Source of the DNA: Alphaproteobacteria bacterium
GTDB lineage: Bacteria; Pseudomonadota; Alphaproteobacteria; UBA11136
Length of the DNA: 61,777 nt
NCBI GenBank assembly: GCA_030739855.1
Contig: JASLYJ010000006.1
Coordinates: 1 to 61,777 of the forward strand
Reading direction: 5' to 3'
The position numbers were made by a program, and so were the translations under genes. The notes under the pieces were generated by a model. It saw nothing but the letters and a program-made list of their open reading frames with translations, ran no database searches and was not told the origin of the DNA. Shown piece by piece: positions 7,881 through 41,745 of the stretch (its first letter is position 1; each line of letters opens with the position of its first letter).

Positions 7881-8144
7881 TTAAAACGCCTGGCGAGTGA
7901 TTGGTAAAAACGGCGAAAAAAACAGAAGAACAGGAAATAATTTACTGAAAAATACTGAAAGCTTTGTGATTCAATAAAATATTTTCACAATCCTTTACTT
8001 AAAAACCAAAACACCCTGAAGGATATGTATCAGTATCTTCCAGAGCACTCAAATCACTCTTTATTGCATTTTGTTACAACATGAATCTCCACGATTCGCA
8101 CTCCCCGACCCGGAAAAGAGGGCAGCATAATGCCGTGCAAAATG

Positions 8145-9386: not shown

Positions 9387-9432
9387 ATTTCCCTCGTTTG
9401 CTTGTTCTTTTTTCTATCCACCGTTCTCATTC

Positions 9433-10323
9433 TCATGTATCGCGGCCGCCTTCTTTGCGCCGGTTGCGCAGTTTCCCCATGGCCTCTTCCGAAAGCTGTA
9501 TCACCAACCTGTCGGGAAGGCGCAGATCGATAACCACCACATCGCGGGCGAGAATTTTGTGACGCTGTTCGAGTTTTCGTAGAGTTTCCCAAGCCTGTTT
9601 CTGATTTTCCGTTGGCAGTCGTACAAGAATGCCCGCATCAAGTTGTAGGTCCCAGCGCCGCTCGCTTACACGAATGGCGGCCACGACACGCTTTTGCAGT
9701 TCCGGTCCGCTGGACATGACAGAAAGTAGTTCCTTGGTATGACGAGGTGCGTCGGTGCCGACGATGTAGGGAAGATGTACAAAACGATTCAGTTCATCGT
9801 GGGCCAGAATTACGCCATCCTCATCTACCACCACAAGATGGCCTTCCTTTTGCCACAGAGCTAAGGGGCGGCGTTCGGTGATGTGGATATGGAGAACGCC
9901 GTCGAGGTGACGTTCGATAGCGGCACTCTTGACCCAGCTGATGGTTTTAAGTCTTCTGCGAGCAATCTCCGGATCAAAGGTAATCAGGGCTTGCCCGTAT
10001 TCTATGCCGAGCGTTGCTAGCACTGCCGTGCAGGTGGTCTCGGAGCATCCCTTCACAAGCACATCACGAACAATAAATCCGGCCTCTGCTGAGAGTTCGA
10101 TGGCCCGCCAGCGCAGGGTCTGGCTTAGCTCCACCGCCTGTTGTGAAAGCAACGGCCAGCCTAGTGTGGCCGCTACCGCCACGGGCAGAAACCCGAGCCT
10201 TGCCTTCCACAGAACTGGATGGCGCGTCCGCAGAGGCGCCATGCGCACGGCGTGTCCGGAGGTCGCTTTGTTGCGTCTAGGAAGGAGACGGCGCCACAGG
10301 ATGGATTGTATTAAGTGTCGCAT
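9433..10323 (-). CDS. ftsQ: cell division protein FtsQ/DivIB
   Basis: TM segment plus POTRA (WVKSAAIER…ITERRPLALWQ), RRWDL and IDLRLPDR; lies between ddl and ftsA. Confidence 0.92.
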   Translation of the reverse strand: MRHLIQSILWRRLLPRRNKATSGHAVRMAPLRTRHPVLWKARLGFLPVAVAATLGWPLLSQQAVELSQTLRWRAIELSAEAGFIVRDVLVKGCSETTCTAVLATLGIEYGQALITFDPEIARRRLKTISWVKSAAIERHLDGVLHIHITERRPLALWQKEGHLVVVDEDGVILAHDELNRFVHLPYIVGTDAPRHTKELLSVMSSGPELQKRVVAAIRVSERRWDLQLDAGILVRLPTENQKQAWETLRKLEQRHKILARDVVVIDLRLPDRLVIQLSEEAMGKLRNRRKEGGRDT

Positions 10324-11234
10324 GCAGCTTTCTCCACCATCCATTTCACCAGTTCGTCGAAAGAAATTCCGGCCTTGGCAGCGATTTCCGGCAGCAGCGA
10401 TTTCGGCGTCATGCCGGGTTGGGTGTTGACCTCAAGGATAAATAACTTCGTGGCACCTTCGCCGATGTCGTCATAGCGGAAATCAACCCTGCTCACCCCG
10501 CGACAGCCCAGGGTTTGATGGGCTAGAAGCGCTAGCCGTGTGGCTTCCTTGGTGTCTTTCTTAGGTAGCAGCGCGGGGACGATGTGTTCGGCCATGTGGT
10601 CGTCACTGTATTTGGCCTCGTAATCGTAGAATTCTTGCTTGGGGCGGATTTCTAGAACGCCAAGGGCCTTGTCGTCCATGATGCCTACAGTGAGTTCCCG
10701 TCCGGGGATGTAGGTCTCGGCCATAACTCTGTCACAGTAGGGCCAGGAGGTATGCTCGAAGGGAAGAGACTCGTCATTGTCGGTGACAATGTGCACGCCT
10801 ACACTAGAGCCTTCATTAAGAGGCTTGATAACGTAAGGTCGTTTCATTACGTCGCCGGCCAGCACCTCGTCGCGGTGGACAATCTTGCCCTTGGGGCAGG
10901 GGATGCCGACCTGGGTGAAGAGGCGGTTAGCTACAGGTTTGTTCATGGCTAGGGCCGATGCGAGAACACCGGAATGGGTGTAGGGCAGTGCCATCAGTTC
11001 TAACAGTCCTTGAAGGCAGCCATCTTCCCCGTAGCGGCCGTGCAGGGCGTTAAAGACAACGTCCGGCCTGGGAAATAGCTTGGATAGCAGCGCCTCTACG
11101 TCATGGGTGGCGTCAATGGTGGTGACGCTGTGGCCCGTATTGCGCAGAGATTCGGCCACATTACTGCCGCTGATTAGCGAAATCTCGCGTTCTGCGGACC
11201 GGCCTCCCATGATGACGGCTACATGTTTACTCAT
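10311..11234 (-). CDS. ddl: D-alanine--D-alanine ligase
   Basis: GGRSAEREISL, FNALHGRYGEDG, EGSSVG and LEVNTQPGMT. ATG 11234 overlaps the murB stop. Confidence 0.97.
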   Translation of the reverse strand: MSKHVAVIMGGRSAEREISLISGSNVAESLRNTGHSVTTIDATHDVEALLSKLFPRPDVVFNALHGRYGEDGCLQGLLELMALPYTHSGVLASALAMNKPVANRLFTQVGIPCPKGKIVHRDEVLAGDVMKRPYVIKPLNEGSSVGVHIVTDNDESLPFEHTSWPYCDRVMAETYIPGRELTVGIMDDKALGVLEIRPKQEFYDYEAKYSDDHMAEHIVPALLPKKDTKEATRLALLAHQTLGCRGVSRVDFRYDDIGEGATKLFILEVNTQPGMTPKSLLPEIAAKAGISFDELVKWMVEKAACDT

Positions 11235-12178
11235 GAATGTGTCTCCACATTCACAGGCAGGCCCACGCGGCGGATTTCCCATTTGAGCTCGATGCCGCTA
11301 TGAGCCATGACTCGGTTGCGCACCTCTTCGCCCAGGGCTTCGATGTCCGCTGTACTGGCATCCCCGGTATTGATGAGAAAATTGCTGTGCTTCTCGGAAA
11401 CCATGGCATCGCCTCGTTTCAGGCCCCGGCAGCCGGCTGCATCAATGAGCTTCCACGCTTTGTGCCCTGACGGGTTGACGAAGGTGCTGCCGCCAGTACG
11501 AAAGCCACGGGGCTGGCTGTCGTTACGGGTGGTCTGGATCTCGGTTAGGCGTTTGCTGATCTCAGAGGTTGTGCTCGGCGTGCCCTCCATGGTGGCGTTG
11601 ATGAACACCCAGTTTTCGGGCACGCTGCAGCTGCGGTAGTCGAAGGCGAGATCGTCGATGCTTAGGTGATGCAAGACACCGGCATTGTCTACGGCCTCAG
11701 CGGCAAGAGTGATATCCTTCATCTCCCTGCCGAAGGCTCCGGCGTTCATGCGCAGGGCGCCGCCAATGGTTCCTGGAATACCGCTGAGGAACTCCATGCC
11801 AGTAAGTGACGCCTTGAGGCTGGTCATGGCCACGTTGTAGTCCAGTGCCCCGGCTTCGGCGCGGATGCGGGTATCCGTTACTTCAATCTCCGAAACGGTT
11901 GTGCCCAGCCGGATGACCACGCCGGGGATACCACCGTCGCGTACGAGAATGTTGGAACCCAGGCCCAGAACCATGAAAGGAACATCCGTTGGCTTGTTTT
12001 TGAGGAAGGCGACAAGGTCTTCCTTATCGGCGGGATCGAATAGGACCTCCGCCGCGCCGCCGGTGCGGAACCAGGTCTTTTCACCAAGCGACGCGTTATG
12101 AGTATAGATGCCACGAATCTGGGGCAGGCGTGAGGTCAGACCGTTCTCAAAACTCTTTTTCATGATACTCTGGTTCAT
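11231..12178 (-). CDS. murB: UDP-N-acetylmuramate dehydrogenase
   Basis: TWFRTGGAA, GLGSNILVRDGG, GIPGTIGGALRMNAGA and GGSTFVNP. ATG 12178 overlaps the murC stop. Confidence 0.97.
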   Translation of the reverse strand: MNQSIMKKSFENGLTSRLPQIRGIYTHNASLGEKTWFRTGGAAEVLFDPADKEDLVAFLKNKPTDVPFMVLGLGSNILVRDGGIPGVVIRLGTTVSEIEVTDTRIRAEAGALDYNVAMTSLKASLTGMEFLSGIPGTIGGALRMNAGAFGREMKDITLAAEAVDNAGVLHHLSIDDLAFDYRSCSVPENWVFINATMEGTPSTTSEISKRLTEIQTTRNDSQPRGFRTGGSTFVNPSGHKAWKLIDAAGCRGLKRGDAMVSEKHSNFLINTGDASTADIEALGEEVRNRVMAHSGIELKWEIRRVGLPVNVETHS

Positions 12179-13617
12179 GACTCCCTCGCCGGTGTTCCGG
12201 AGTCGCCTTCGGCAAGCTGCACCATTTCCTCTGGAAGGACGGCGGCCCATCTGGTGCTGCTGCCCGCACCCATGCATATGACCATGTCCCCGGGCTGGGT
12301 GATCTTGGAGACCATCTCCGCTAGTTGGGAAGGATCTTCAAGCGCCAAAACTTCTCTGTGGCCGAAGGCGAACAGCCCTTTGATAAAGGCGTCGCGGTCG
12401 GCGCCTTTTAGAGGGTCCTCACCGGCGGCATAGACCTCCGATACGATCACCGTGTCGGCGTCTTTAAAACAGGTGCAAAATTCCTCGAACAGGTTCAACA
12501 GGCGTGAGTAACGGTGGGGCTGGATCACGGCGACAACCCGGTTCTCGCCACAGACGGAGCGCGCCGCTTGGAGAACGGCGGCGATTTCCACGGGATGATG
12601 GGCGTAGTCATCAATGACAGTGACACCGTTGGTAATACCGGTCTTGGTAAATCGCCGCTTGACCCCGCTAAAGGTGGCTAAGCCCATGCACATGACATCG
12701 GGATCGATGTTCATTCCCTGACCTACCGCCAGCGCCGCCAGGGCATTCTGTACGTTGTACTCGCCTACCATGGGCAGGTGCATGTTCTTCCACGTGGTGT
12801 TGGTTCCGGACGTGCGATTAGTGGAGACTACGTGGAATCGCATACCCTCGGAATCACTTTCCAGATTGACGGCGCGCATGTCGGCCTGTGGGCTAAGCCC
12901 GTAGGTAATAATGCGGCGGCTGGATACCCGGGGGATCAGACTCTGGACTTCCGGGTGGTCGATACACAGCACGGCAAATCCGTAAAAAGGAATATTGCGG
13001 ATGAAGGTCTCAAAGGCCTGGCGCAAGTTGTCGAGAGAACCGTAGAAATCGAGATGCTCGGCATCTATATTTGTGACCACGGCGATGGTGGCCGGTAACT
13101 TGATGAAGGTGCCGTCGGATTCATCGGCTTCCACCACTATCCAATCACCTTCACCAAGGCGAGCATTGGTCCCGTAGGCGTTGATGATGCCGCCGTTGAT
13201 GACCGTGGGGTCGAGGCTGGCGGCATCGAGGATAGCCGCGATCATGGAAGTAGAGGTAGTCTTTCCGTGAGTACCGCCTACGGCAATGGATTTTTTCAAA
13301 CGCATGAGTTCGGCTAGCATTTCTGCGCGGCGCACCACGGGGATCATGGCGGCGCGGGCGGCGGCGAGTTCCGGGTTGTCGGCGTCTACCGCCGAGGACA
13401 CCACAACCATCGAGGCTTCATTTAGGTTTTCCGGGTTGTGTCCTGTCATCACCGGAACCCCCAGGTTGACTAGACGTTTCACGTTGGCGTTTTCCTGGAG
13501 GTCGCTGCCCTGGACTTGGTAACCTAGATTATGCATGACTTCGGCGATGCCGCTCATGCCGATACCGCCGATGCCGACGAAATGTGTGGTACCCAAGGGC
13601 AGGGGAAGGGCCTTCAT
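12175..13617 (-). CDS. murC: UDP-N-acetylmuramate--L-alanine ligase
   Basis: HFVGIGGIGMSGIA, GTHGKTTST, EADESDGTF and DDYAHHP. ATG 13617 follows GGAGG and overlaps the murG stop. Confidence 0.97.
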   Translation of the reverse strand: MKALPLPLGTTHFVGIGGIGMSGIAEVMHNLGYQVQGSDLQENANVKRLVNLGVPVMTGHNPENLNEASMVVVSSAVDADNPELAAARAAMIPVVRRAEMLAELMRLKKSIAVGGTHGKTTSTSMIAAILDAASLDPTVINGGIINAYGTNARLGEGDWIVVEADESDGTFIKLPATIAVVTNIDAEHLDFYGSLDNLRQAFETFIRNIPFYGFAVLCIDHPEVQSLIPRVSSRRIITYGLSPQADMRAVNLESDSEGMRFHVVSTNRTSGTNTTWKNMHLPMVGEYNVQNALAALAVGQGMNIDPDVMCMGLATFSGVKRRFTKTGITNGVTVIDDYAHHPVEIAAVLQAARSVCGENRVVAVIQPHRYSRLLNLFEEFCTCFKDADTVIVSEVYAAGEDPLKGADRDAFIKGLFAFGHREVLALEDPSQLAEMVSKITQPGDMVICMGAGSSTRWAAVLPEEMVQLAEGDSGTPARES

Positions 13618-14774
13618 GCCACCTCCTCCCTTGGGGAAGGGGCCGTGCCACACGATTTCTGGCTCTTGCCATTAGGTGGCAGTAGCGCCCACGCGGCGTC
13701 GGCAAGGCGCGAGGCGGCATCGGGAATCCCTAGCCTGCGGGCCGCTGCCGCTGCCTTTTGTAGCTTTTCGGGGTTTTCAAGGAAGGAACATAGCATTCCG
13801 GCAAGGGCAGAAGCTGTAAAGTCGCACTCGTCAAATACCCAGGCGCCACCACTCGCCTCGATAATGCGCGCATTGGCACTCTGGTGATTATCCATAGCGA
13901 AGGGATAGGGCACAAGGATGGCGGGACGTCCGGCGGCGGTGGTCTCGGCTACGGTGCTGGCACCAGCGCGGCCGATGACGAGATGGGCTCGATGCAGGCG
14001 TCGTGGCATGTCGTTGAAGAAGGGCTTGACGGCGGAGTCCAGGCCCAGTGCTGCGTAAACACCCCTCACTCTTTTTACGTCCTCGGAACGGCATTGATGG
14101 GAAATACGTAGCCGCGCCCGTAAGACTTCCGGCATAATGGCAATGGCATTGGGCAGGACGCACCCAAACACGGCGGCACCCTGGCTCCCGCCGGTGACAA
14201 GGAGGTTTAATGCCTCGTCTTTTCCCAGAGACGGATAGGAGAAGCTGCGAATTTCAGAAATAGTTTGTCGCACCGGGTTACCGGTGCGCATGGTCTTGGC
14301 TATGTCACGCCTGTGTAGCCGTGCTACTTCCTCAAACGAGGTGGCTATGGCTCCCGCCATAGGTGCCAGTAGCCGGTTAGCTCGGCCCAGAACTGCATTT
14401 TGCTCATGGATCAAGGTGGGTAGGCGCAGCCACCGCGCAGCGAGCATGGTGGGGACGCTGGCATAGCTGCCAAAACCTACAACTAGCGAGGGGTTCAACT
14501 CCCGTAATAGACGCCAGGCCTCGACAATGCCGCGTATGATCCTGGCCATGCCGCCAAGTTTTTCCGCGATCCCACCCGACAGCCGTCCAGCACTGACGGT
14601 GTGTGTAGCTACCTCTCCGGGAAGGGCTCCGAATGGGGCGCACCTGTAGTCTGTGACGAGGGCCAGTTTGCAGCCGCGCGTGACCAGCTCTAAAGCCAGC
14701 GCTTCAGCCGGGAAGACGTGACCGCCTGTGCCACCGGTCGCGAGAGCCACTAGGGGGGAGGTCAGAGCATTCAT
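13614..14774 (-). CDS. murG: lipid II GlcNAc transferase MurG
   Basis: GGTGGHVFPA, HEQNAVLGRAN, GGSQGA and RAGAST. Confidence 0.97.
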   Translation of the reverse strand: MNALTSPLVALATGGTGGHVFPAEALALELVTRGCKLALVTDYRCAPFGALPGEVATHTVSAGRLSGGIAEKLGGMARIIRGIVEAWRLLRELNPSLVVGFGSYASVPTMLAARWLRLPTLIHEQNAVLGRANRLLAPMAGAIATSFEEVARLHRRDIAKTMRTGNPVRQTISEIRSFSYPSLGKDEALNLLVTGGSQGAAVFGCVLPNAIAIMPEVLRARLRISHQCRSEDVKRVRGVYAALGLDSAVKPFFNDMPRRLHRAHLVIGRAGASTVAETTAAGRPAILVPYPFAMDNHQSANARIIEASGGAWVFDECDFTASALAGMLCSFLENPEKLQKAAAAARRLGIPDAASRLADAAWALLPPNGKSQKSCGTAPSPREEVA

Positions 14775-15901
14775 GGCGTTTTTCCCAGCCCGGTGCGGCG
14801 CCGGGTTAGCGCCAGAACCATGCCCATGCCAAGCGACAGTGCGGTCAGAGACGAGCCGCCGTAGGAAATAAAGGGCAGGGTCATGCCCTTGGTGGGAATG
14901 AGATGAAGGCTTGAGGCTATGTTGATGACGGCCTGAAGGCCGAACTGGACCAGAAGACCGGTGCCAGCGAGAAGCACAAAGAGGCTATTTTCCTCCGTCA
15001 AGCGGCTAAAACTGCGCACTATGACGAAGACGAATAGGCCGACGATGGCGAGACAGGCCAACAGGCCGAATTCTTCCCCGGCCACGGCGAAAATGAAATC
15101 GGCATGGGCATCGGGCAGGATTTCCTTGATGGTGCCTTCGCCTGGGCCGCGCCCCGTCAGCCCGCCATGCACGAAGGCTTCCATGGATGTGGTAATCTGA
15201 TAGCTATCGCCTGAGGCGGGATCGAGAAAATGGTCGATGCGGCCAGCTACATGGGGAAAGAGGAAATAGCTCGCTACTAGTCCACCGCTGGCCACGACTG
15301 TGAGGACGGCCGCCCAGGCCAAGGGAAGCCCGGCTAAAAAGAACTGGGTGAACCAGACAGCGGAAATAACCACTGCCATACCGAAATCTGGCTGCATCAA
15401 CAACAGGGAGATCACCAACAGTAACAGCCCTCCCACCAGGAAATTACCTGTGGAGACTTTTTCCAAGCGTGTCTGGGCAAACATCCAGGCGGCGATGACG
15501 ACAAAGCTGGGCTTTACGAATTCAGAGGGCTGTAGAGAGAGCCCACTCCAGCCCAGTGAAATCCAGCGCTGCGCGCCGTTGTGCTCTTCACCAAAAAACG
15601 GGGTCATGACAAGAAGGACCATGGAGCCGATGAAAACAACCACCGCTAGGCGGTACACCTCTTTCGGTGAGAGCAGGGACACTGAGGCCAGAATGAAGGC
15701 CGCCGGGAATATCAGGACAAATTGGCGGCGCACGAAATAGAAGGAATCATAACCCAGCTTGTCGGCTACGGACGGGCTTGCCGTCAGGGTGAGAAGTGCA
15801 CCGAAGGCTACGAGGATGGCCAGCGCGCCCAGCGTCCAGCGGTCCACGGTCCACCACCAGCGGCCGATGACGCTTGTATCAGTGCGCGCGAATCCACTCA
15901 T
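14771..15901 (-). CDS. ftsW: SEDS peptidoglycan polymerase FtsW
   Basis: QPSEFVKP, QPDFG, LPDAHADF and PTKGMTLPFISYGGSS. Confidence 0.96.
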   Translation of the reverse strand: MSGFARTDTSVIGRWWWTVDRWTLGALAILVAFGALLTLTASPSVADKLGYDSFYFVRRQFVLIFPAAFILASVSLLSPKEVYRLAVVVFIGSMVLLVMTPFFGEEHNGAQRWISLGWSGLSLQPSEFVKPSFVVIAAWMFAQTRLEKVSTGNFLVGGLLLLVISLLLMQPDFGMAVVISAVWFTQFFLAGLPLAWAAVLTVVASGGLVASYFLFPHVAGRIDHFLDPASGDSYQITTSMEAFVHGGLTGRGPGEGTIKEILPDAHADFIFAVAGEEFGLLACLAIVGLFVFVIVRSFSRLTEENSLFVLLAGTGLLVQFGLQAVINIASSLHLIPTKGMTLPFISYGGSSLTALSLGMGMVLALTRRRTGLGKTP

Positions 15902-17349
15902 GGGGAGGCTTTCTTCTGGTTGAGGCTAGGCGTGGCAACCTCCTCATGGACATCAATGCCGGCACGTTTGTGGACCATGGCCCGGAAGGCGTCGCCACGG
16001 GTCTCGAAATTACGCCATTGATCAAAGGAGGCGCATGCCGGGGAAAACAGGACCACTAGGGTGGTGCCAAACTTTTCTTCGGTCTTTTTTTCCACCAGGG
16101 CCATGTCCATAGCCCTAGCAAGGGCAGTTTCGAGATCACCCGAAAGGGTCACATCAACCTGTCCTTCCAGGGTTTTGGCGAAGGTATCGGCGGCCTCGCC
16201 TATGAGAAAGACATGGCGGATACGTTCGAACCAGGGGACCAGCCCTTCGATGCCGCCCTCTTTGGCCTGGCCACCGGCAATCCAAATAATGTTTTCATAG
16301 CAGTCCAGCGCCCGTGCTGTTGCGCTGGCGTTGGTAGCCTTGCTGTCGTTTATGAAGGCGATGTCGTTGATGTAGGCTACCAGTTCTTGCCGGTGGGGCA
16401 GGCCGGGGAAGCTGTGAATGCCATCGCGGATCTGTGGCATGGCCAACCCAGCCGCACGAGTAGCGGCGAAAGCGGCGGCAGCGTTCTGGGCGTTGTGGAT
16501 TCCGGGTAGGGAGACGGCGGCGGCCATGTTCATGACTCTTTCTTCGCGGCACTCGATATCATTGACTAGCCAGCCGTCTTCTACGTATACGCCACCCGTG
16601 GCCCTGTTGGCTCCGGAAATGGGGATGGTGAGCGCCCCATCCTTGGCCCTAAAGCTTTCGAATAGCTTGCGGGAGCAGGAATCATCAATGCCGATAACGG
16701 CGGTATGTGAAAGTTGTTGGCCGTTAAAAACCCGTTCCTTGGCACTCATATAGCCCCTTAGACTGCCATGACGGTCCATGTGGTCGGGGCTGATATTGAG
16801 CAATATGGCGATGTCGAAGACCATGGTGGAAATAAGCTCCAGCTGATAGGAGGACATCTCCAAAACGTAGTAGCCACCGGGTCCGACTTCTTCCAGAGCC
16901 ACCGATGGTACCCCGAGATTGCCACCTATCTGCACTGTGCGTCTGGCTTGATCTAGAATATGTCCGATGAGTGCGGTGGTGGTGGATTTACCGTTGGTGC
17001 CTGTAACGCCAATGAGAACGCCGCTAGTGCCGGCGCGGGCCAGAAGCTCGGTCTCACCAATGATCTCGCAGTTAGCAGCTCGTGCGCGTGACACTACCGG
17101 ATGGGGTTGTGGCAGGCTGTGGGGGATGCCGGGGCTCAGCACTAGCGCGGTGATGCACGAGAAATCCTCAGTCATAAGATTGGTCAGCGGCATATTTTTG
17201 GCCCTGGCCCGCTGGCGACATGCCTCGTCGTCATCCCAGGCCAGCACATGGGCGCCGCTGTGGGTCAGGGCGCTGGCGGCCGCTTCGCCAGATCTGCCAA
17301 GTCCCATTACAGCTACATTACGTCCTGACATGGGAGGAATGGAGATCAT
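15898..17349 (-). CDS. murD: UDP-MurNAc-L-Ala--D-glutamate ligase
   Basis: GLGRSG, TGTNGKSTTT, EMSSYQL, NDSKATN and SPACASFDQ. Confidence 0.97.
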   Translation of the reverse strand: MISIPPMSGRNVAVMGLGRSGEAAASALTHSGAHVLAWDDDEACRQRARAKNMPLTNLMTEDFSCITALVLSPGIPHSLPQPHPVVSRARAANCEIIGETELLARAGTSGVLIGVTGTNGKSTTTALIGHILDQARRTVQIGGNLGVPSVALEEVGPGGYYVLEMSSYQLELISTMVFDIAILLNISPDHMDRHGSLRGYMSAKERVFNGQQLSHTAVIGIDDSCSRKLFESFRAKDGALTIPISGANRATGGVYVEDGWLVNDIECREERVMNMAAAVSLPGIHNAQNAAAAFAATRAAGLAMPQIRDGIHSFPGLPHRQELVAYINDIAFINDSKATNASATARALDCYENIIWIAGGQAKEGGIEGLVPWFERIRHVFLIGEAADTFAKTLEGQVDVTLSGDLETALARAMDMALVEKKTEEKFGTTLVVLFSPACASFDQWRNFETRGDAFRAMVHKRAGIDVHEEVATPSLNQKKASP

Positions 17350-17355
17350 CTTCCC

Positions 17356-18444
17356 TTACCTCAGTTTCAACGTTGCCAACCCAGCGAGCGCCAGGATGGA
17401 GGCGATAATCCAAAAACGGATGACAATAGTGGATTCGGCCCAGCCCTTCTGCTCGAAATGGTGGTGTAGGGGGGCCATGTGGAAGATACGCCTTCCCGTT
17501 AGCTTGAAAGAGACTACTTGTATGATGACGGAGACGGTTTCGAGTACGAACAGCCCACCGATGATGGCTAGCACCATCTCATGTTTGGTAATAACGCTGA
17601 GCGTACCCAGCGCTCCGCCCATGGAAAGCGATCCCGTATCCCCCATGAAGATCATAGCCGGAGGCGCATTGAACCACAGGAATCCTAGCCCTGCGCCTAC
17701 CAGTGCCCCGCAGAACACGGCCAGTTCGCCGGTACCGATCACATGGTGGATCTGCAGGTAATCGGAAAAGACGGTATTGCCAACGAGATAGGAAATGAGC
17801 GCGAAACAGCTGAATGCGATCATCACTGGTACGATGGCTAGGCCGTCCAGTCCGTCGGTGAGGTTAACAGCGTTGGCTGCGCCAACCACCACGAAGACCG
17901 CCAGCGGCGCGAACATCCATCCGAGATCGAGCAGGAGGTTCTTGAAGAAAGGAATAGAGAGTCCGGTGGCGAGCGAGGGGGCGGCGATATCCGTGATCCA
18001 CAGGACCACAGCTAGAGCAATGACGATCTCCACTGTCAGCTTAACCGCGCCCGGAATTCCGTGGCTGCTCCGCCACCTAAGCTTGAGGAAATCATCGGCC
18101 GCGCCTACAGCACCAAAGCCGAGGGTGATAACGATGACTACCCATACATAGCGGTTTGTAAGATCGGCCCACAATAGGGTGCTCAGGATCACTGCTACGA
18201 GGATGAGGAGGCCGCCCATGGTGGGCGTCCCCTGCTTACGGGTGAGATGGTTCCGGGGCCCATCGTTGCGGATAGGCTGGCCTTCATTCTGGATGTACTT
18301 GAACCATTTGATAATGGCAGGGCCGATGAGGAAGCTGATAATCAGTGCCGTGATCACCGCACCACCGGTGCGGAAGGTGATATATCGGAATAAGTTAAAC
18401 GCACTGATTTGTTCCGCGAAGGGGACGAGAAGGTTATAAAACAT
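17356..18444 (-). CDS. mraY: phospho-N-acetylmuramoyl-pentapeptide transferase
   Basis: [30 protein letters not shown] and MAPLHHHFE. Confidence 0.97.
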
Positions 18445-18453
18445 GGCCTTGCC

Positions 18454-19875
18454 TTATTTTCCATCAACCACTTGCGGTGTGGCTGTATCCATGTCTTTCA
18501 GCGCCGCTACTACGTCGCGCATACGGCTGCTGTAGGACCCCTTAACGGTAATTACATCGCCTGGCTTGAGCGCAGCTTTGACCATGGGGGCCAAGGCGGC
18601 GGCATTCGCGGCGTGGCCACCGCACATCTCCACGGGCAGGGCGTTGCGCAGGTGTTCCATTTCCTTGCCGGCGGTAAACACCAGGTTAATCTTTGCTCTT
18701 TCCAGATCTCGGGCGAGGCATGCATGCATAGGAGCCGAATGTTCCCCAAGCTCTAGCATGTCGCCTAACACGGCGATACGTCGTCCCGTGCCCTTAGGGG
18801 GAGTGCGGGAGAGAACGGAAATGGCAGCACGCATGGAAGCTAGGCTGGCGTTATAGCTCTCATCGAAAAGATAGAAATCGCCGCTGGGCGTGGACAGACA
18901 GTAATGGCAGCCGCGTCCCTCTATGGCCTTTAGGGTGGATAGGGTTTCGGCAGTTTCCTTTACATCTCCATGAAGAGCGTCTACTGCCGCCAGAACGGCG
19001 AGGCTGTTGATAGCCCAGTGGCGTCCCGGCATGTCCAGGCGATAGCTGACGGTGATGCCAGAGACCTTCGCCGTAATGTGGCTGAAGAGGGGCTGGAAGT
19101 CGCACTCCACTAGCCTGGCATCGGCTTCGGGGTGTGCGCCGAAGCCGATGATATGGGTGATGCCCTGTTCACGGGCGGTTTCGGCAAGCACGGGAAAGAA
19201 GGGATTCTCGCGTGGCAGGATGGCGGCACCATTGCTCATGCCTTGGAAGATTTCCGCCTTAGCCTCGGCGATATGGGCGACGGAGGTGAAGAACTCTGAA
19301 TGTACTGGTTCGACGCTGGTAATGACAGCTACGTGTGGGCGTGCCAGCTCCGACAGGGGAGCGATTTCGCCGGGATGATTCATTCCCAGTTCGAACACAC
19401 CGAAGGCGCTGTCCCTAGGCATGCGCGAGAGGCTCAGGGGGACTCCCCACTGGTTATTGAGGTTGCCCATGCTGGCGGCGGTAGGGCCCTGTGGTTCGAG
19501 AGCCAGCCGCAGAGCCTCCTTGGTGCTGGTTTTCCCTACGCTCCCAGTAATGGCGGTGATGCGTGCTGAGGTGCGGTTGCGGGCGGCTCTGGCCAAGTTG
19601 TCTAAACCTTTTTGTGTGTCTTCCACCAGGAGCAGGGGCCGGGTTTCTTTCGCTTCGTCAAGAACGTGGCTTACCATGGCAGCACTGGCCCCGGAGGCGA
19701 AGGCTTTGTCCACAAAGTCATGGCCGTCGAAATTGGGGCCGACGATAGCAATGAAGAGATCATTTTCCTCTAGCGTGCGGCTGTCTATAGAAACGCCGTC
19801 GGCAGTCCACGGTACGGTTGACTGGCCTCCAGTGGCCGTTGCTGCCTCATCATGTTTCCAGAGAAGCGCGGTCAT
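18454..19875 (-). CDS. murF: UDP-MurNAc-tripeptide--D-Ala-D-Ala ligase
   Basis: SIDSRT, ITGSVGKTSTKE, ELGMNHPGEI, DESYNA and LGDMLELG. Confidence 0.97.
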   Translation of the reverse strand: MTALLWKHDEAATATGGQSTVPWTADGVSIDSRTLEENDLFIAIVGPNFDGHDFVDKAFASGASAAMVSHVLDEAKETRPLLLVEDTQKGLDNLARAARNRTSARITAITGSVGKTSTKEALRLALEPQGPTAASMGNLNNQWGVPLSLSRMPRDSAFGVFELGMNHPGEIAPLSELARPHVAVITSVEPVHSEFFTSVAHIAEAKAEIFQGMSNGAAILPRENPFFPVLAETAREQGITHIIGFGAHPEADARLVECDFQPLFSHITAKVSGITVSYRLDMPGRHWAINSLAVLAAVDALHGDVKETAETLSTLKAIEGRGCHYCLSTPSGDFYLFDESYNASLASMRAAISVLSRTPPKGTGRRIAVLGDMLELGEHSAPMHACLARDLERAKINLVFTAGKEMEHLRNALPVEMCGGHAANAAALAPMVKAALKPGDVITVKGSYSSRMRDVVAALKDMDTATPQVVDGK

Positions 19876-21410
19876 GAGGTTCCATCCATTGCTTCAGCGG
19901 TGCTGGTCAGTGTGGCCCGTGCCACAGCGGTGTCGTCAAAATCATATCTTTCATCACCTACGATTTGGCAGGTTTCATGGCCCTTGCCGGCAATCACCAG
20001 AAGGTCCTTAGGCTTTAGGGCGGCGATGGCGGCGGAAATGGCGTCCGCGCGGTCGCCGATCTCGCGGATGGTGTCACCAGTTTTTGTCAAAATTCCGGCA
20101 AGAATCTGCTTGCGGATGGCACCCGGGTCTTCACCGCGCGGATTGTCATCAGTCACAACGACTACGTCGGCGAGGCGTCCAGCCACCTCTCCCATGAGAG
20201 GACGCTTGCCCGCGTCGCGGTTGCCACCGCAACCAAACACCACATGCAAGCGACCTTCCACATGGGCGCGTAGGGAGCGCAGGGCGTTTTCTAGCGCATC
20301 GGGGGTGTGGGCATAATCCACGTAAACGGGGGCACCGTTGGCATGATTGGCGACCCGCTGCATGCGTCCAGGGGCGCCCTCAAGATGGGTGAGCGCTGTC
20401 ACCGCAGCTTCCTCATCACTGCCGCAGGCCAACACTAAGCCCAGGGCGCACAGCGCGTTGCTGGCTTGGAAGTCTCCCGCAAGCGGGAGCAAAACCTGGT
20501 AGGCGTTTTCGCCTATAAACATGGAGAGAATCTGACCGCTGGGGCCTGGTGTCTGGCTTTCAAGGCGGATCTGGTCGCCCTTGCGGCCAAAACCGATGAC
20601 CCTATTGCCGCGTACGGCAGCGATGCGCGCAAGGTCGTGAAATTCTGGCGTATCGGCGTTGAGGACGGCGGTGCCGCCCTCTTCAAGGATGTCCTCGAAT
20701 AGCCGGTGTTTAGTATAAAGATAACTTTCCATATTGCCGTGATAGTCGAGATGGTCGCGGCTGAGATTTGTGAAGGCCGCTGCACGCACATGCACGCCGT
20801 CGAGACGGTATTGGTTCAGCCCGTGACTGGAAGCCTCCATCACCAGGTGGTCCACACCTTGGCTGCAAAGCATGGAAAGCGTTTTGTGGAGTGCCACTGG
20901 GTCTGGTGTAGTCAGCCCCGCACCTGTACCCAAGTCACCGGTATCTACATTGGTGTGCAACCCTAGCGTGCCCAAGCTCGCTGCTTTGTATCCCAGACGA
21001 TCCCAGACCTGCCGTGTGAAGGCAGCTACCGAGGTCTTACCATTTGTGCCGGTGACGGCAGCGATGTGGGAGGGTTGGTGCGGGTGGAAACGGGCCGCCA
21101 TCAGGGAGAAGGCGCGGCGCGGGTTGCTGTCGGTAAGGACAGGTACGTTTGGAACGCTTTTGTCAGCCTCCACATCTTTCCCGGTGAGAATGGCTACGGC
21201 ACCGCGTTTTACAGCTTGGTTGATGAAAGCACTGCCATCGACCTGCGTGCCGGGTAGGGCGGCGAATAGGTCGCCCGGATGTACCTTACGGGAATCGGCG
21301 CATAGTCCGGAGATGTCCGGGTCCGATGTCAAGGCCTGCTGGGTGGTGTCTGTTACGGTCCCCTGAATCAGCTCAGTAAGAAACACGACTTGGTCCCCGG
21401 GGCGCGACAT
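19872..21410 (-). CDS. murE: UDP-MurNAc-dipeptide--meso-DAP ligase
   Basis: VTGTNGKTS, MEASSHGL, NLSRDHLDYH, DYAHTPD and the DAP-specificity motif DNPR. Confidence 0.97.
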   Translation of the reverse strand: MSRPGDQVVFLTELIQGTVTDTTQQALTSDPDISGLCADSRKVHPGDLFAALPGTQVDGSAFINQAVKRGAVAILTGKDVEADKSVPNVPVLTDSNPRRAFSLMAARFHPHQPSHIAAVTGTNGKTSVAAFTRQVWDRLGYKAASLGTLGLHTNVDTGDLGTGAGLTTPDPVALHKTLSMLCSQGVDHLVMEASSHGLNQYRLDGVHVRAAAFTNLSRDHLDYHGNMESYLYTKHRLFEDILEEGGTAVLNADTPEFHDLARIAAVRGNRVIGFGRKGDQIRLESQTPGPSGQILSMFIGENAYQVLLPLAGDFQASNALCALGLVLACGSDEEAAVTALTHLEGAPGRMQRVANHANGAPVYVDYAHTPDALENALRSLRAHVEGRLHVVFGCGGNRDAGKRPLMGEVAGRLADVVVVTDDNPRGEDPGAIRKQILAGILTKTGDTIREIGDRADAISAAIAALKPKDLLVIAGKGHETCQIVGDERYDFDDTAVARATLTSTAEAMDGTS

Positions 21411-23118
21411 CTACAAACATCTTCCTCTGGACTTCTGGGGCGCCTTCATCAATGGGTAGAATCCCAAGCAGGGGGCCTGTCCTGGAGATTACACGGCGTG
21501 CCACAGGTGCGGCGACCCAGCCTCCGGTGGCATACCCATTGGTTTTTTCAGTGCCCTTTGGCTCGTCGAGCATGACGAACAGCACATATCGCGGTGCGGT
21601 CATGGGAAAGGCACTAACGAAGGAGGACAGAAGCGCCTTGGCACTGTAGTCGCCGTCTACCAATTTCTCGGCTGTGCCAGTTTTACCGCCCACGAGATAG
21701 CCATTCACCTTTGCCCTTTTGCCCGTTCCCTTCGCCACCACAACGCGCATGAGGCGGCGAACCTGCTCCGAGATTTCAGGGGAGAGGACGCGCGAACCGG
21801 GTTCCCCCGTTTCCGGAGGGCGTTCGTCTTTGCCTGTTTCCTTCGGGACACGAGGGAACAGGGTCGCCGGATAAAGAATCCCACCATTGACCATGGCTGC
21901 AGCTCCGGTGGCAAGTTGGACTGGGCTGATAGCGAGGCCGTGGCCGTAGGCTACTGTCATGGTGTTGAGTTCGCTCCATGGCGAGGGCACCAACGGTTTG
22001 CCCACTTCTGGTAGTTCGATGGAGGCGGGGCTGAGTAGGCCTAGTTTCCCGAGAAAAGCACGCTGGCCAGTTGTGCCCACGTCACTGGCCATTTTTGCGG
22101 CACCGATATTGGAGGAGTGAATGAGAATTTCAGGAACTGAGAGCCAGCGACCCTGTGGGTGATAGTCACTGATGGCATCGTGGCCCATACCGATCGGCTC
22201 TGTGGCGTCATAGCCGCCATCCAGGCCCACAGTTCCGGATTCCAGTGCCATAGCTGCAGTAAAAATTTTGAAGGTGGAGCCCATCTCATAGACCCCTAAC
22301 GTCGCCCGGTTGAAGAATGCCTCGCCGTCTCTGTTTCGAGGGTTGTTGGGGTCGAAATCTGGCAGCGAGACTAGCGCTAGGACCTCGCCGTTACGGGCGT
22401 CCATCATCAGCCCAGCACTGCCGATAGCCTGGTGGTGCTGATGTGCTCTGGACAGTTCCTCGTGGAGGATGCTCTGGACCCGGATATCGAGAGATAGGCG
22501 AATAGGCTCGGAACTGCTACGCAGTTCCTTGTTCATGAAATGCTCGACCCCGGCCAGGCCGTGGTGGTCGTTGCCGGAGAACCCCAGCACGTGGGCCGTC
22601 AGGTTGCGGTGGGGATAGATCCGTTTTTCCTCATTCTGGAAATCGAGGCCGAGAATGCCGAGGCTGTTGACGGTATATTTCTGGCGTGGTGTCAGGTGAC
22701 GGTAAATCCACACGAACGAGCGATCGGAGGCGAGCCGACTACGGGCAAGTTTTTCTTCAAGGTTGGGCAGGACGCTTTTGAGTTTGTCAACAGCCTCGTC
22801 GATATCGAGAATTTGCTGCGGATGGGCGTAAAGCCAATGAGTGCGTAGGGAAGTGGCCAGCAGAATGCCGTTACGGTCAAGAATGTCGGCGCGTTCCCTT
22901 TTTAAGGTGCCTAGCTCGGTGGCCTGAACCAGGCGGGGCTCGTGGCCATCGTGCATCATAGTCAGACCAATAAGCCGGGCACCAATGACGGTGAAGGTCA
23001 CGAGGAACAGCGCGCCGATCATCAGGAGGCGGTTACGCGCGGTGTCCAACGCCTGTTTGGTAATGCCGTCGAGCGCCTGGCAGCCTTTCGTATATGAAGG
23101 AGGATTCTGTCGTATCAT
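21373..23118 (-). CDS. ftsI: penicillin-binding protein 3 (septal transpeptidase)
   Basis: RADILDRNG and catalytic motifs SxxK (GSTFK), SSN and KTG. Confidence 0.95.
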   Translation of the reverse strand: MIRQNPPSYTKGCQALDGITKQALDTARNRLLMIGALFLVTFTVIGARLIGLTMMHDGHEPRLVQATELGTLKRERADILDRNGILLATSLRTHWLYAHPQQILDIDEAVDKLKSVLPNLEEKLARSRLASDRSFVWIYRHLTPRQKYTVNSLGILGLDFQNEEKRIYPHRNLTAHVLGFSGNDHHGLAGVEHFMNKELRSSSEPIRLSLDIRVQSILHEELSRAHQHHQAIGSAGLMMDARNGEVLALVSLPDFDPNNPRNRDGEAFFNRATLGVYEMGSTFKIFTAAMALESGTVGLDGGYDATEPIGMGHDAISDYHPQGRWLSVPEILIHSSNIGAAKMASDVGTTGQRAFLGKLGLLSPASIELPEVGKPLVPSPWSELNTMTVAYGHGLAISPVQLATGAAAMVNGGILYPATLFPRVPKETGKDERPPETGEPGSRVLSPEISEQVRRLMRVVVAKGTGKRAKVNGYLVGGKTGTAEKLVDGDYSAKALLSSFVSAFPMTAPRYVLFVMLDEPKGTEKTNGYATGGWVAAPVARRVISRTGPLLGILPIDEGAPEVQRKMFVDVAPRGPSRVSY

Positions 23119-23555
23119 GGTGCGCCTCCGGTATTGATCGCGAGTGAGGCTGGGGATGCGTCCTTTTCGGACGCATCCCCAGTGAGCAGGGCCTGTCGGA
23201 CGTCGTGGGACGAGGGGGAGGTTAGGCCCTGCTCGAGACTCTTATTTTCACCAGTCGTTTGCTTCGATGAGGCAGGGTCGTGCCGCCTGGGAAGTTCTTT
23301 AATGGTAGTGATGCGCTCGGCGGAGAACGGAGTGAAGCCCAGAAATTTAGTGTTAAGTTTCTGTAACTGGCGGGGTCGATTGAGGTAGCTCCAATCGGCG
23401 TTGAGAGCGTGAATGGCTTCCTGGTCGTTGAGAATATTGCCGTGAAGCCTTGTCAGTTCTGCTTCCATGATCTGCACTTCGTGTTGTATCTTGAACAGGC
23501 CAAAGCCAAAGATCGCCAAGAGCACGAGGCAAGCAAGAGTCATAGGCCGGATCAT
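23115..23555 (-). CDS. ftsL: cell division protein FtsL (alphaproteobacterial type)
   Basis: N-terminal TM, coiled coil and LNADWSYLNRPRQL motif; its stop overlaps the ftsI start. Confidence 0.85.
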   Translation of the reverse strand: MIRPMTLACLVLLAIFGFGLFKIQHEVQIMEAELTRLHGNILNDQEAIHALNADWSYLNRPRQLQKLNTKFLGFTPFSAERITTIKELPRRHDPASSKQTTGENKSLEQGLTSPSSHDVRQALLTGDASEKDASPASLAINTGGAP

Positions 23556-23588
23556 GGTTTTGAGGCTCCTGTCCCTTACAATCCTTTT

Positions 23589-25259
23589 TTAATTGGCCTG
23601 TCTGCGCAGGAACGTCGGGATTTCCAACAGGTCGTCATCGCTCTGGGACATCGGCATGCGGTCCACGGGGTCCATGCCGCCCAGTCTCGGCTGGATATTG
23701 GGCGGGTTCGATTCTGCGGCCGGCACCGGAGCGGGAGCAAGGACGGGAGCCTCCGCTGGTTTCACTGCCTTGACCTTCTTGTTCTTATTGCGGGCTTCTG
23801 TCAACTTTCTGAACATGCCTCCCGGCCCTTTCCTTTCTCGGCCACCGTTGGCCATGGCTGCAGCGGCGAAGGGATTGACCGGAGTTTCTTTCATCTCACC
23901 TTCTTGTCCTTCGTCGGACGCCTCTACCGGGCGCGGCGAAATGAAAGGAGACCTGCTTTGCTCCCGCAAGGTGGTGGCAAGCCTTTCCACGGGCACGCCA
24001 AGTTCCTCTGCTTTGGATTCGGCCCAAGCTTTCTTCGCGTGCCCCGGAGGTGGGGCGATATCCAACCCGTCATCGCCGGAAGCCGTTTCCTTTCTGACAT
24101 CAGGAGCCGGCGTGATTTTGTCGGCATCCGTTGGCAAGGGAAGAACCACGCTGTCGGTCTTGGCTGCTGCCGTGGGGTTTTCCGCCTTGCGCGGGGGCGT
24201 ATATTTGTCGCCGATGGCAGGCATTTCAGGTACGTTGTTTATCCCTGGATGATCGGTGAGGAGATGCACATTATCGCTACTGGCGGCCACCTCAGCGTCG
24301 ATTCCCGTGGCCACAACCGAAACCCGCATGAGGCCCTCCATGGTGTCCTCAATGGCGGTGCCGAAAATGATATTAGCGCTGGAGTCCACTTCCTCCTTGA
24401 TGCGGTTGGCGGCTTCGTCCACCTCGAACATTTTCATATCCAACCCACCTGTGATGTTAATGAGCACGCCGCGCGCACCCTTCATGGAGGCATCTTGGAG
24501 TAGGGGATTGGAGATAGCAGCTTCGGAAGCTTCCAGAGCACGTTTTTCACCCTCGGCTTCGCCGGTACCCATCTGTGCTTTGCCCATTTCAGTCATCACC
24601 GAACGGATGTCGGCAAAATCGAGATTAATAAGGCCGGGTTTGACCATCAGGTCCGTGACCCCGCGTACGCCACAGTGAAGCACTTCGTCGGCCATATTGA
24701 AGGCCTCGGCGAAGGTGGTATTTTCGTTGGCCACCCGGAATAAGTTTTGGTTGGGGATAATGATCAGGGTATCTACGTATTGCTGAAGTTCCTCAATGCC
24801 GCCTTCGGCGATATACATGCGCGTGGTGCCTTCGAAATCGAATGGTTTGGTGACGACGCCTACGGTGAGGATTCCAAGTTCCCTCGCAGCACGGGCGACG
24901 ACCGGCGCAGAGCCGGTTCCCGTGCCACCGCCCATGCCGGCCGTGATGAAAGCCATATGGGTGCCAGTGAGGTGCTCGATGAGTTCATCGATAGTTTCTT
25001 CCGCCGCGGCTCTGCCAATATCGGGACGCGATCCGGCGCCCAACCCTTTAGTGATGGTAGCCCCAAGCTGGATCTTGCGTCCGGCTTCAGATTGGGCGAG
25101 CGCCTGGGCATCGGTGTTAGAGGCAATGAATTCTACGCCCTGCAGTCCAGAGCGGATCATGTTGTCAATGGCGTTACCGCCAGCACCACCGATACCTACG
25201 ACGGTAATTCTGGGTTTCATTTCGGCTTCCTTAGGAGGAAGGCTCAGATTGATACTCAT
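23589..25259 (-). CDS. ftsZ: cell division protein FtsZ with a long linker, in a non-canonical position
   Basis: GGAGGNA, tubulin signature GGGTGTG, T7 loop NLDFAD and C-terminal peptide [12 protein letters not shown]. Confidence 0.98.
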
Positions 25260-25262
25260 AAT

Positions 25263-26345
25263 TCACTCCTTTTCGTTCTCTCTAGTAGGAAAACATCCTG
25301 TTGATCTTTGTTCCGGATTGATCTCCCAGGCCGGTTCATTCGTGCGGATGGCAGTGCGCATGCGTCCCGAACGGGCACGGGGGTTGACGTCGGTTTCCGC
25401 CTTGTCGGGCGGGACTGCACCTCTTGAGATATTGGTGAAGCTAGGGGCGGGGCTAAAAACGGCAGTATCGGGGAGATGACGCGAGGGCCGCGGCGTAGCG
25501 CCGCTGCGCTGTTTGAGAAACCCCTTCACCCGGCGGTCTTCCAACGAGTGGAAGGAGACTACGGCCAGCGTGCCGCCGGGGCTTAGAATCCGTTCCGCAG
25601 CGGCCAGCCCGCGGTCCAATTCCCCGATCTCGTTATTGACGTGAATACGCAGGGCCTGGAAGGTACGGGTAGCGGGATCAATGCCGTCGCGACTTTTCCG
25701 CACCACACTGCGGACGATGCCAGCGAGTTGGAAGGTGTGGATGATAGGGGACTCGCTGCGTGCTTTGACGATGGCTCTGGCCACATGCAGTGACCGGCGT
25801 TCGCTGCCGTAGTGGTAGATAATATCTGCTAGTTCCTTTTCGTCCATATTATTGACAATGTCCGCTGCGCTTGGCCCCGCGGCATCGTTGCCTTCCATGC
25901 GCATGTCGAGAGGCCCGTTGAAACGGAAGGAAAAACCCCGCTCCGGCTGGTCGAGCTGCATGGAAGATACGCCGAGATCGAAGGTGACTCCCTCTACCCG
26001 AGTCACGCCGTGTTTGGCCAGAAGACTGCCCATATCTCCGAAACATCCGGTGATAAGTTCCAAGCGGTCACCGAATTTGTCCTTCATGGCGGTGCCGGTG
26101 GTAATAGCGTAGGGGTCGCGATCAATGCCCCAGACCGTGCAATCGGCAGCCTCGAGGATGGCGGCGCTGTAGCCGCCCGCGCCGAAGGTGCCGTCCACAT
26201 AGACCCCGCCGTCATGGGGGGTGAAAGCCTTAAGAACTTTGTCCAAAAGGACTGGTTTGTGGATAGCGGGGGGAGGGCAGATGGCGCCGCCGGAGACACT
26301 TGCACAGGCGTGCATGGTGGTCATTGCCGGAGGCGCGAATATCAT
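25263..26345 (-). CDS. rsmH: 16S rRNA m4C1402 methyltransferase
   Basis: HKPVLL, DGTFGAGGYS, DLGVSSMQLD, ATRTFQALRI, SFHSLEDR and NPRARS. Confidence 0.97.
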   Translation of the reverse strand: MIFAPPAMTTMHACASVSGGAICPPPAIHKPVLLDKVLKAFTPHDGGVYVDGTFGAGGYSAAILEAADCTVWGIDRDPYAITTGTAMKDKFGDRLELITGCFGDMGSLLAKHGVTRVEGVTFDLGVSSMQLDQPERGFSFRFNGPLDMRMEGNDAAGPSAADIVNNMDEKELADIIYHYGSERRSLHVARAIVKARSESPIIHTFQLAGIVRSVVRKSRDGIDPATRTFQALRIHVNNEIGELDRGLAAAERILSPGGTLAVVSFHSLEDRRVKGFLKQRSGATPRPSRHLPDTAVFSPAPSFTNISRGAVPPDKAETDVNPRARSGRMRTAIRTNEPAWEINPEQRSTGCFPTRENEKE

Positions 26346-26827
26346 GAACCGCCTCCGGAACTGTTTTTGCCTCTTGGTATGGGCCGTAGCCTCAGGCTAA
26401 TACCCTTGCTTTCTGTTTGTTTGAGAGTGTTCTGGCGGTGGGTTTCGTAATGTTGCGGCTGCCACATCTGGAATGTGGGGCCGAGTCCTGCAAATAGGAC
26501 TTCGTCAGTAATATAAACACGGGAGCCAAGGGGTTTAGGCAGGACGATGCGGCCGGTGTCGTCGAAAGCAAGCTGTTCGGCCTGGGCAAAGATAAGCTGG
26601 GCTAGGTCTAGTTCCTCTGGTGAATACTGGTCGGGTTCGTCGAGGCTGGCTGAGAGCGCTTCCATGCGGTCTATGCCGCAGGCATCAATGGCGCTAAGTT
26701 CGGGAGAGGGGAAGGCGACAATGCCAGCGAAGCTCTGGTTCGCTAGGGCCGAGCGGAAAGGTGCGGGCACCGAAACCCGCCCTTTCTTGTCGACCTTGTT
26801 TACCGTCGTAGACAGAAACAGAGCCAT
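26342..26827 (-). CDS. mraZ: dcw transcriptional repressor MraZ
   Basis: Two DxxGR motifs (VDKKGRVSVP, FDDTGRIVLP); first gene of the dcw cluster. Confidence 0.95.
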   Translation of the reverse strand: MALFLSTTVNKVDKKGRVSVPAPFRSALANQSFAGIVAFPSPELSAIDACGIDRMEALSASLDEPDQYSPEELDLAQLIFAQAEQLAFDDTGRIVLPKPLGSRVYITDEVLFAGLGPTFQMWQPQHYETHRQNTLKQTESKGISLRLRPIPRGKNSSGGGS

Positions 26828-26954
26828 GTACCCCCCAAGTAAAAAAAACCTCTTTTACATGCGCTACACCGCACTCCTCTTATTTCCCCCGGTTTGTTCC
26901 GGATGGCGGCGTGCGGAACTTCGCCCTGTCCCATGGCATCCTTGTGCTATAAGC

Positions 26955-26990
26955 GTGGGATACTATGGGATTGCATGGTATATTATGGGT
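26955..26990. promoter_or_regulatory. MraZ-type binding repeats (four TGG-GA/TA/GT units, 10-bp period)
   Basis: TGGGA at 26956 and 26966, TGGTA at 26976, TGGGT at 26986; about 130-160 bp upstream of mraZ. Confidence 0.7.
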
Positions 26991-27134
26991 AAGAATTAAG
27001 AAGCACAATAAAAAACTGGAAAATTGTTTTTTTACTAGTTGTGGGGTGCTTTTCACTTTCTCCAACAAGGACTGGTGAAAAACTTGAGCTTTCATGCAAG
27101 CATTATTTCCATAGCGGCAAATAAGCTCCCAAGT

Positions 27135-27149: not shown

Positions 27150-27251
27150 TTGTTTTTTGTTGAGATTTATCTTAGGGAGCTACCTCCCGGGGACGGCAAT
27201 GGAGATGCATAGCTCGTAATCGAGGTAAGTAACTGAGAAAATAAAGAAAAA

Positions 27252-27640
<389 letters not shown>

Positions 27641-31090: not shown

Positions 31091-31147
31091 TGGCCATTAA
31101 ATGATTTCAGCCAGCCCCGCACGGGCACAGCGCTACGCCTGTGAGTG

Positions 31148-41713: not shown

Positions 41714-41745
41714 GTGGGGCCATTTCTGCAGGGTAAGCCTCGAAA

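Follow-up and report, generated by a model that had tools for sequence, protein, structure and literature searches.

Apparent forward move of a native ftsZ within the dcw cluster of a marine alphaproteobacterium

Main

The order of the dcw cluster (division and cell wall genes) is a textbook case of long-fixed gene order, and the ftsA–ftsZ pair is its most constant part. In a 61,777-nucleotide stretch of a draft alphaproteobacterial genome (assembly GCA_030739855.1, contig JASLYJ010000006.1; the whole stretch was analysed and is hereafter called the window), ftsZ lies instead between rsmH and ftsL, close to the head of the cluster, and ftsA is followed directly by lpxC. We consider it likely that this arrangement is a real and derived transposition of the native ftsZ within one operon, which would make ftsZ the third cistron from the conserved mraZ promoter.

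The closest described arrangement is the canonical cluster itself, which we compared in five relatives, three of the same genus (G001–G003) and two of the sister genus (G004 and G005). The window shares with them its genes and strand, the mraZ promoter region with its boxes, the ftsL-to-ftsA order and the lpxC–bamD neighbourhood, and differs in that ftsZ sits at rsmH/ftsL instead of ftsA/lpxC, that an ATGA overlap between rsmH and ftsL has been lost and that rsmH has a new tail. The mraZ–rsmH pair still stands at the head and the mur and fts genes keep one strand and the usual order, but the rsmH–ftsL and ftsA–ftsZ adjacencies are both broken. In the excerpted text of one account, the dcw cluster is generally conserved, and losses are listed rather than moves of this kind (PMC8871954). 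A second point of comparison is the minimal division operon of Mycoplasma genitalium, given in excerpts of two sources as mraZ–mraW–MG_223 (ftsA-like)–ftsZ (PMC8475190; PMC12957436). As far as those excerpts go, it resembles the window in having ftsZ close 3′ of mraZ and rsmH (mraW) and a promoter with repeated MraZ boxes, but the closeness there arose through loss of intervening genes and ftsA still lies 5′ of ftsZ, whereas in the window only ftsZ has moved. The loss of cell-wall genes that marks Mollicutes-type clusters is not seen in the window, where the genes from ftsL to ftsA are all present. In the full-text literature, which leaves most subscription journals outside, we found no description of ftsZ between rsmH and ftsL or of forward ftsZ moves in small genomes.

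Gene order of the cluster

The cluster was mapped from open reading frame (ORF) calls and Pfam matches, with coordinates given as positions in the window and all cluster genes on the minus strand (Table 1). Together with Rfam, these give a minus-strand order of rnpB, mraZ, rsmH, ftsZ, ftsL, ftsI and eleven more cluster genes to ftsA, then lpxC; bamD, recN and ligA lie 3′ of lpxC. The calls confirm what a preliminary description of the window had reported, namely an ftsZ placed between rsmH and ftsL and an ftsA followed by lpxC: the rsmH stop codon TGA (25265–25263) shares its frame with the ftsZ ATG (25259), 3 nt away, a gap of 33 nt separates the ftsZ stop from the ftsL ATG, and AGGAG stands ahead of both the ftsZ and the ftsL starts. 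The old and new sites of ftsZ are about 15.5 kb apart.

The displaced FtsZ is intact, with both Pfam domains above their curated cut-offs (Tubulin, 165.8 bits; FtsZ_C, 122.3 bits), the tubulin signature GGGTGTG and the conserved C-terminal peptide, which binds membrane anchors such as FtsA; against NCBIfam TIGR00065 it scores an E-value of 9.1e-122. A second copy elsewhere had been raised as something to check, and ftsZ proved to be single in the window's genome (G000, a 1.41-Mb draft in 109 contigs, 88% complete).

Table 1. Features of the dcw cluster and of the displaced ftsZ (positions in the window).
Feature	Position	Strand	Basis and remarks
rnpB (RNase P RNA)	27250..27638	-	Rfam RF00010, 303 bits; adjoins the mraZ promoter region, same strand
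Candidate mraZ promoter, TTGTGC, 17 nt, TAATAT	26951..27008	-	Sequence, conservation in relatives; overlaps four boxes
mraZ	26342..26827	-	Pfam MraZ, 1.8e-14; 4-nt overlap with rsmH start
rsmH	25263..26345	-	Pfam Methyltransf_5, 9.5e-87
rsmH tail, last ~11 codons	25263..25295	-	Encoded by the former ftsZ leader
Moved block, ~1,722 bp	23574..25295	-	Leader, ftsZ and trailer; alignments to relatives' spacers
Former leader, 36 nt	25260..25295	-	Carries AAAGGAG ribosome-binding site; aligns to last part of relatives' ftsA–ftsZ spacer
ftsZ	23589..25259	-	556 aa; Pfam Tubulin, 1.8e-48, and FtsZ_C, 1.1e-35
Trailer, 15 nt	23574..23588	-	Aligns to start of relatives' ftsZ–lpxC spacer
ftsL with own Shine–Dalgarno region	23115..23573	-	GACAGGAGCC at 23564–23573; homologous to stretch 5′ of ftsL in relatives
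ftsL-like membrane/coiled-coil ORF	23115..23555	-	146 aa; no match in Pfam search; 79.5% identity to same-place ORF in G002
ftsI	21373..23118	-	Pfam
ftsI-murE-murF-mraY-murD-ftsW-murG-murC-murB-ddl-ftsQ-ftsA	8145..23118	-	Pfam; order unchanged
ftsA	8145..9386	-	Pfam
Scar at old site, 264 bp between ftsA and lpxC	7881..8144	-	Alignments to relatives, terminator scan
Small GC hairpin with T-rich tail	8123..8135	-	Terminator scan; directly 3′ of ftsA stop
Invariant 18-nt motif AA(T/C)AAAGAGTGATTTGAG	within 8048..8079	-	Alignments; 3′ of ftsZ in relatives
Terminator-like long hairpin and T run	8001..8046	-	Terminator scan
lpxC	6882..7880	-	Pfam LpxC, 2.6e-104; now directly 3′ of ftsA

Independent assemblies across the junctions

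A 2.1-kb stretch over both new ftsZ junctions had 0.90–0.99 of its sampled words in 15 DNA runs from nine studies of marine or seawater metagenomes; the window may stem from one of the nine, and the bridging runs come from other studies. Contigs that had been assembled separately, from three DNA runs of these other studies and from a metatranscriptome run, were compared with window positions 7400–27000. The rsmH/ftsZ junction is bridged by contigs of runs X6 (record 24, 24640–25670, 0 differences) and X7 (record 31, 24381–25450, 4 differences) and by a contig of 224 nt from RNA library X16 (record 7, 25140–25363, 1 difference), the ftsZ/ftsL junction by X5 record 16 (23159–24409) and X7 record 30 (23352–24409), and the ftsA/lpxC junction by X5 record 9 (7400–8870). 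None of the loose contig ends fell at a junction among 20 of 50 such ends. Genome-contig and metagenome-contig scans, which may omit near records, yielded no contig of the same species, and support at the population level therefore rests on the metagenome runs and the bridging contigs.

The gene order is not a misassembly, the concern left by the preliminary description, as all three new junctions are bridged by independent marine metagenome contigs. The artefact that would have to be assumed is a chimeric contig of a metagenome-assembled genome in which ftsZ truly lies 3′ of ftsA, and a draft of 109 contigs and an order absent from all close relatives would suit it; we give it next to no credence because contigs from DNA runs of three other studies and from an RNA library span all three junctions with 0–4 differing letters, every ancestral spacer piece is present once, the junctions lack repeats, and three coordinated false joins in a single contig would be required. 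Since independent contigs bridge the junctions, we regard the gene order as fixed in a marine population that is widespread.

In the same comparison, contigs of X6 and X7 touch both 10851–10869 and 26160–26179, with 14 other letters between and long unlike ends; these contigs are probably from a different organism with short conserved words in common.

Relatives and the origin of the displaced gene

The order ftsA–ftsZ–lpxC is found in all three same-genus genomes and in both sister-genus genomes, and ftsL comes directly after rsmH in all four relatives with a readable junction (G001–G004). In each of the three congeners the two genes share an ATGA, where the stop of rsmH overlaps the start of ftsL. 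On single contigs of G001, G002 and G004, rsmH and ftsZ are about 15.5–17 kb apart. By this comparison of gene orders the window order is derived, and, since the old order persists in its own genus and family, the move is an independent event. The findings agree with the earlier proposal of a move of about 15 kb inside the cluster, the native ftsZ having been displaced by about 15.5 kb, off ftsQA, to a place 3′ of the conserved mraZ promoter region. The further suggestion that the order could mark a lineage holds at species level only and fails at genus level, where three of three congeners are canonical. The genome of the window, at about 1.6 Mb (1.41 Mb at 88% completeness), is the smallest in the genus, the others measuring 1.6 Mb (86% complete), 2.0 Mb and 2.5 Mb.

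Whether the gene is native or xenologous was likewise among the points to be checked. The closest FtsZ proteins are those of the three congeners (79–80% identity), then those of the sister genus (62%), and these values track the ones for FtsA (82–84% and 64%), LpxC (77–79% and 61–63%), RsmH (72–75% and 59–61%) and MraZ (83% and 69–70%). In identity matrices, each gene compared sets the window's species apart from the rest of its genus, and ftsZ is, as far as these identities tell, without special acceleration. Because the FtsZ identities parallel those of its neighbours, ftsZ is native, not imported. A foreign ftsZ inserted 3′ of rsmH, with later loss of the native copy, would leave a similar end state of one relocated ftsZ and a scar at the old place, but we consider this very improbable, both because the best matches and the parallel identities point to the genus itself and because the 36-nt leader and 15-nt trailer that flank the gene are homologous to the flanks of ftsZ in the relatives.

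Occurrence of forward-moved ftsZ

In three samples picked by FtsZ likeness, ftsA lies directly 5′ of ftsZ in 27/29 loci of relatives, 74/78 loci on genome contigs and 60/77 loci on metagenome contigs, and the window order is absent from all 184. The rest of these samples have unreadable or unrecognisable neighbours; the neighbours seen at loci without ftsA 5′ of ftsZ were a short-chain dehydrogenase, a CNNM transporter, Fic or murG–ftsQ, and none was mraZ or rsmH. A further 55 loci of the phylum (30 best matches and 25 chosen to favour small genomes and a variety of families), a sample dominated by few families, all have ftsA directly 5′ of ftsZ.

Forward-moved ftsZ genes appear when genomes are chosen by small size. 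Among 40 genomes of ≤1.9 Mb from a second class, picked by size and family and not by ftsZ position, 33 are canonical and six, from five families, carry a moved ftsZ; this class is taken as Gammaproteobacteria because its class centre, G630, scored best against the ftsZ model. The moved state occurs in 6/12 of these genomes of ≤1.3 Mb vs 0/28 of those of 1.4–1.9 Mb, with sizes rounded, one genome (G749) 84% complete, and two (G853 and G1008) belonging to the same genus. The order in G749 (mraZ–rsmH–ftsZ–ftsL–ftsI), read ORF by ORF, is identical to that of the window; G853 and G1008 have mraZ–rsmH–[ftsL]–ftsZ–ftsI...ftsA–lpxC; G1055 and G712 have ftsZ–rsmH; and in G913, a 1.2-Mb genome (L290, G913:C1:800000-819999), the pair has moved together to give rsmH–ftsA–ftsZ–ftsI–murE. 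In one more genome of this class (G764), ftsZ is followed by lpxC and no ftsA is recognisable. Among 25 alphaproteobacterial genomes of 0.5–1.3 Mb, also picked by size and family, ftsA lies directly 5′ of ftsZ in 14 and two have a moved ftsZ: G119 (1.2 Mb, single contig; L317, G119:C1:495000-514999, locus GC 0.26) reads mraZ–ftsZ–rsmH–...–ddl–ftsQ, and G157 reads mraZ–rsmH–ftsZ up to the contig end. The slot next to rsmH that ftsZ takes in the window was thus reached independently in two other genomes, G749 and G157.

The window fits this group in having ftsZ among the first genes of an otherwise intact cluster. The other members belong to other families or classes, and all eight have genomes of about 1.3 Mb or less (0.9–1.3 Mb), whereas the window's genome exceeds this size and has congeners with the old order. 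On the question, left by the preliminary description, of whether the order is already common in the clade, the answer is divided: it is absent from relatives and from loci picked by FtsZ likeness, but it is not unique and recurs in reduced genomes. The junctions of the window are readable because the event is young and the congeners still have the old order, and the window would represent the youngest event of a recurrent and apparently undescribed pattern.

In another genome, of 1.9 Mb, an ftsZ match with one in-frame TAG (G754:C1:3775-4758) has canonical neighbours.

Anatomy of the junctions and route of the move

The moved block consists of ftsZ with parts of both of its old spacers. The trailer agrees with the letters after the ftsZ stop in relatives at 12/15 positions, a score equalled by 95/2000 shuffles, position not counted. 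At the other end, rsmH differs from that of all relatives after EPAW, over about 11 residues. The ftsL gene keeps its own upstream letters (GACAGGAGCC...ATG) and has lost the rsmH overlap.

What remains at the old site is a composite of both ancestral spacers. The 5′ part of the scar is the first ~50 nt of the old ftsA–ftsZ spacer, which at a breakpoint near 8095/8096 joins the distal part of the old ftsZ–lpxC spacer. The small hairpin at 8123–8135 has a counterpart with a different stem sequence at the equivalent place in relatives and may, in the ancestral arrangement, have acted as an attenuator between ftsA and ftsZ. The motif AA(T/C)AAAGAGTGATTTGAG stayed at the old site and is now 3′ of ftsA; its exact 15-mer occurs in 10/245 loci, some belonging to the family of the window and others to further related, genome and metagenome loci; besides the window, the loci listed with the motif are L002–L007, L018, L036, L067 and L115. 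It could be a protein-binding site or part of an lpxC promoter region. An Rfam scan of the scar returned no family, no pairs resulted when the conserved motif region was folded as an alignment, and an RNA fold of the scar found nothing beyond shuffles (z -0.53).

ACAGGA occurs on both sides of the insert, and the letters that follow ftsZ in relatives seem to be present both 3′ of the moved gene and, as the exact 6-mer GAATCG, in the scar. Such repeats are expected if ftsZ was copied first, on its own or as part of a tandemly duplicated ftsL..ftsZ, with deletion of the redundant copies afterwards. Tandem duplication–random loss, known from organelle genomes, is one model of how gene order changes, and the exchange of two adjacent blocks (ftsL..ftsA and ftsZ) could be produced in this way by one duplication and two deletions, with the trailer and ACAGGA seemingly two-sided; it differs in that the second copies here are too short or diverged for significance and that no intermediate carrying ftsZ twice was found. 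Pfam detected no mobile-element genes in the cluster. On these observations, copying followed by loss (or tandem duplication with two deletions) and a single cut-and-paste event appear about equally likely.

Operon position and proposed mechanism

The candidate mraZ promoter and its boxes lie in a region that is near-identical in five relatives, in which the 3′ end of rnpB also lies 5′ of mraZ. The four boxes, at 26951–26990, repeat with a 10-nt period, and each reads (A/C)CCA(T/C) on the minus strand. According to an excerpt of the published work, MraZ operators consist of repeated boxes at a 10-nt period, which the period in the window matches (PMC12957436). Control of the operon by MraZ through the four candidate boxes is plausible on these letters. 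Between 22900 and 27800, terminator-like sites on the coding strand numbered 0/6, and RNA folds at the new junctions were no better than shuffles (z 0.20 and 0.02). The preliminary description had ftsZ placed under an MraZ-controlled promoter and uncoupled from ftsQA: its placement 3′ of the mraZ promoter and off ftsQA stands, and the part that concerns MraZ, like the suggested change in the FtsZ:FtsA ratio, is plausible only.

We propose that in an ancestor of this widespread marine alphaproteobacterium the native ftsZ left the ftsA–lpxC slot together with a 36-nt piece of its leader and 15 nt of trailer. It would then most likely have become the third cistron of the mraZ transcript, behind the promoter with four MraZ-type boxes, and would be translated from the strong ribosome-binding site carried along with it. 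The rsmH gene would have gained its 11-codon tail, with a stop 3 nt ahead of the ftsZ start, and ftsL would have lost its ATGA coupling to rsmH and kept its own ribosome-binding site. With the old hairpins and the terminator-like element left behind, the operon would now end after ftsA, and FtsZ would owe its level to a place near the promoter and to how efficiently it is translated, not to signals in ddl–ftsQ–ftsA.

Several observations weigh against this account. Among the matches listed, the ftsA/lpxC junction is bridged by one independent contig only. The supposed second trailer copy at the old site does not reach significance, 441–572/5000 shuffles attaining the score of the GAATCG 6-mer. 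On the opposite strand the boxes have the form (A/G)TGG(G/T), and GTGG is present in 1/4 of them only. A promoter-like site with 9/12 matches lies inside rsmH on the coding strand (25846–25819). The X16 contig across rsmH/ftsZ is a weak hint of co-transcription, for contaminating DNA could explain it; this RNA library has few short contigs on the window, with most bins uncovered, and is uninformative on expression level. A large excess of FtsZ over FtsL and FtsI from one transcript is also unexplained in this scheme.

An alternative interpretation is that the move is real and has no regulatory effect, ftsZ having its own promoter, new or pre-existing in rsmH, and its position having been fixed by drift in a shrinking genome. 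The promoter-like site inside rsmH would fit, as would the absence of any recognisable cluster neighbour of ftsZ in 9/25 reduced alphaproteobacterial genomes, which points to a loosened ftsA–ftsZ link in small genomes. We consider this interpretation unlikely, although clearly more credible than an artefact or a foreign gene, because that site is no better than chance (two promoter-like sites found vs 2.6 expected from shuffles) and because all eight moved cases elsewhere sit at or next to rsmH at the operon head, which suggests that position matters.

Implications

A clean natural swap beside unswapped sister species offers a direct test of whether the FtsZ level and the FtsZ:FtsA ratio depend on operon position. 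The window and the independent small-genome cases suggest a rule in which ftsZ tends toward the operon head as the genome shrinks; a rule of this kind, if true, would bear on the regulation of division in minimal cells and on the design of reduced genomes, and we found no paper stating it. Only tentatively, and as a proposal that falls short of our favoured conclusions, we suggest that internal promoters and cell-cycle regulators are lost as genomes shrink and that the FtsZ supply is then secured behind the mraZ promoter, with the window as the youngest such event and the sole one whose junctions would show copying followed by deletion.

Other features of the window

Two features lie outside the cluster. 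GC content falls to 0.44–0.50, against about 0.57, at 31000–34000, a region that encodes a beta-barrel protein of the outer membrane and two ORFs lacking Pfam matches. A two-piece (permuted) alphaproteobacterial tmRNA gene is located at 41745–42074 on the minus strand.

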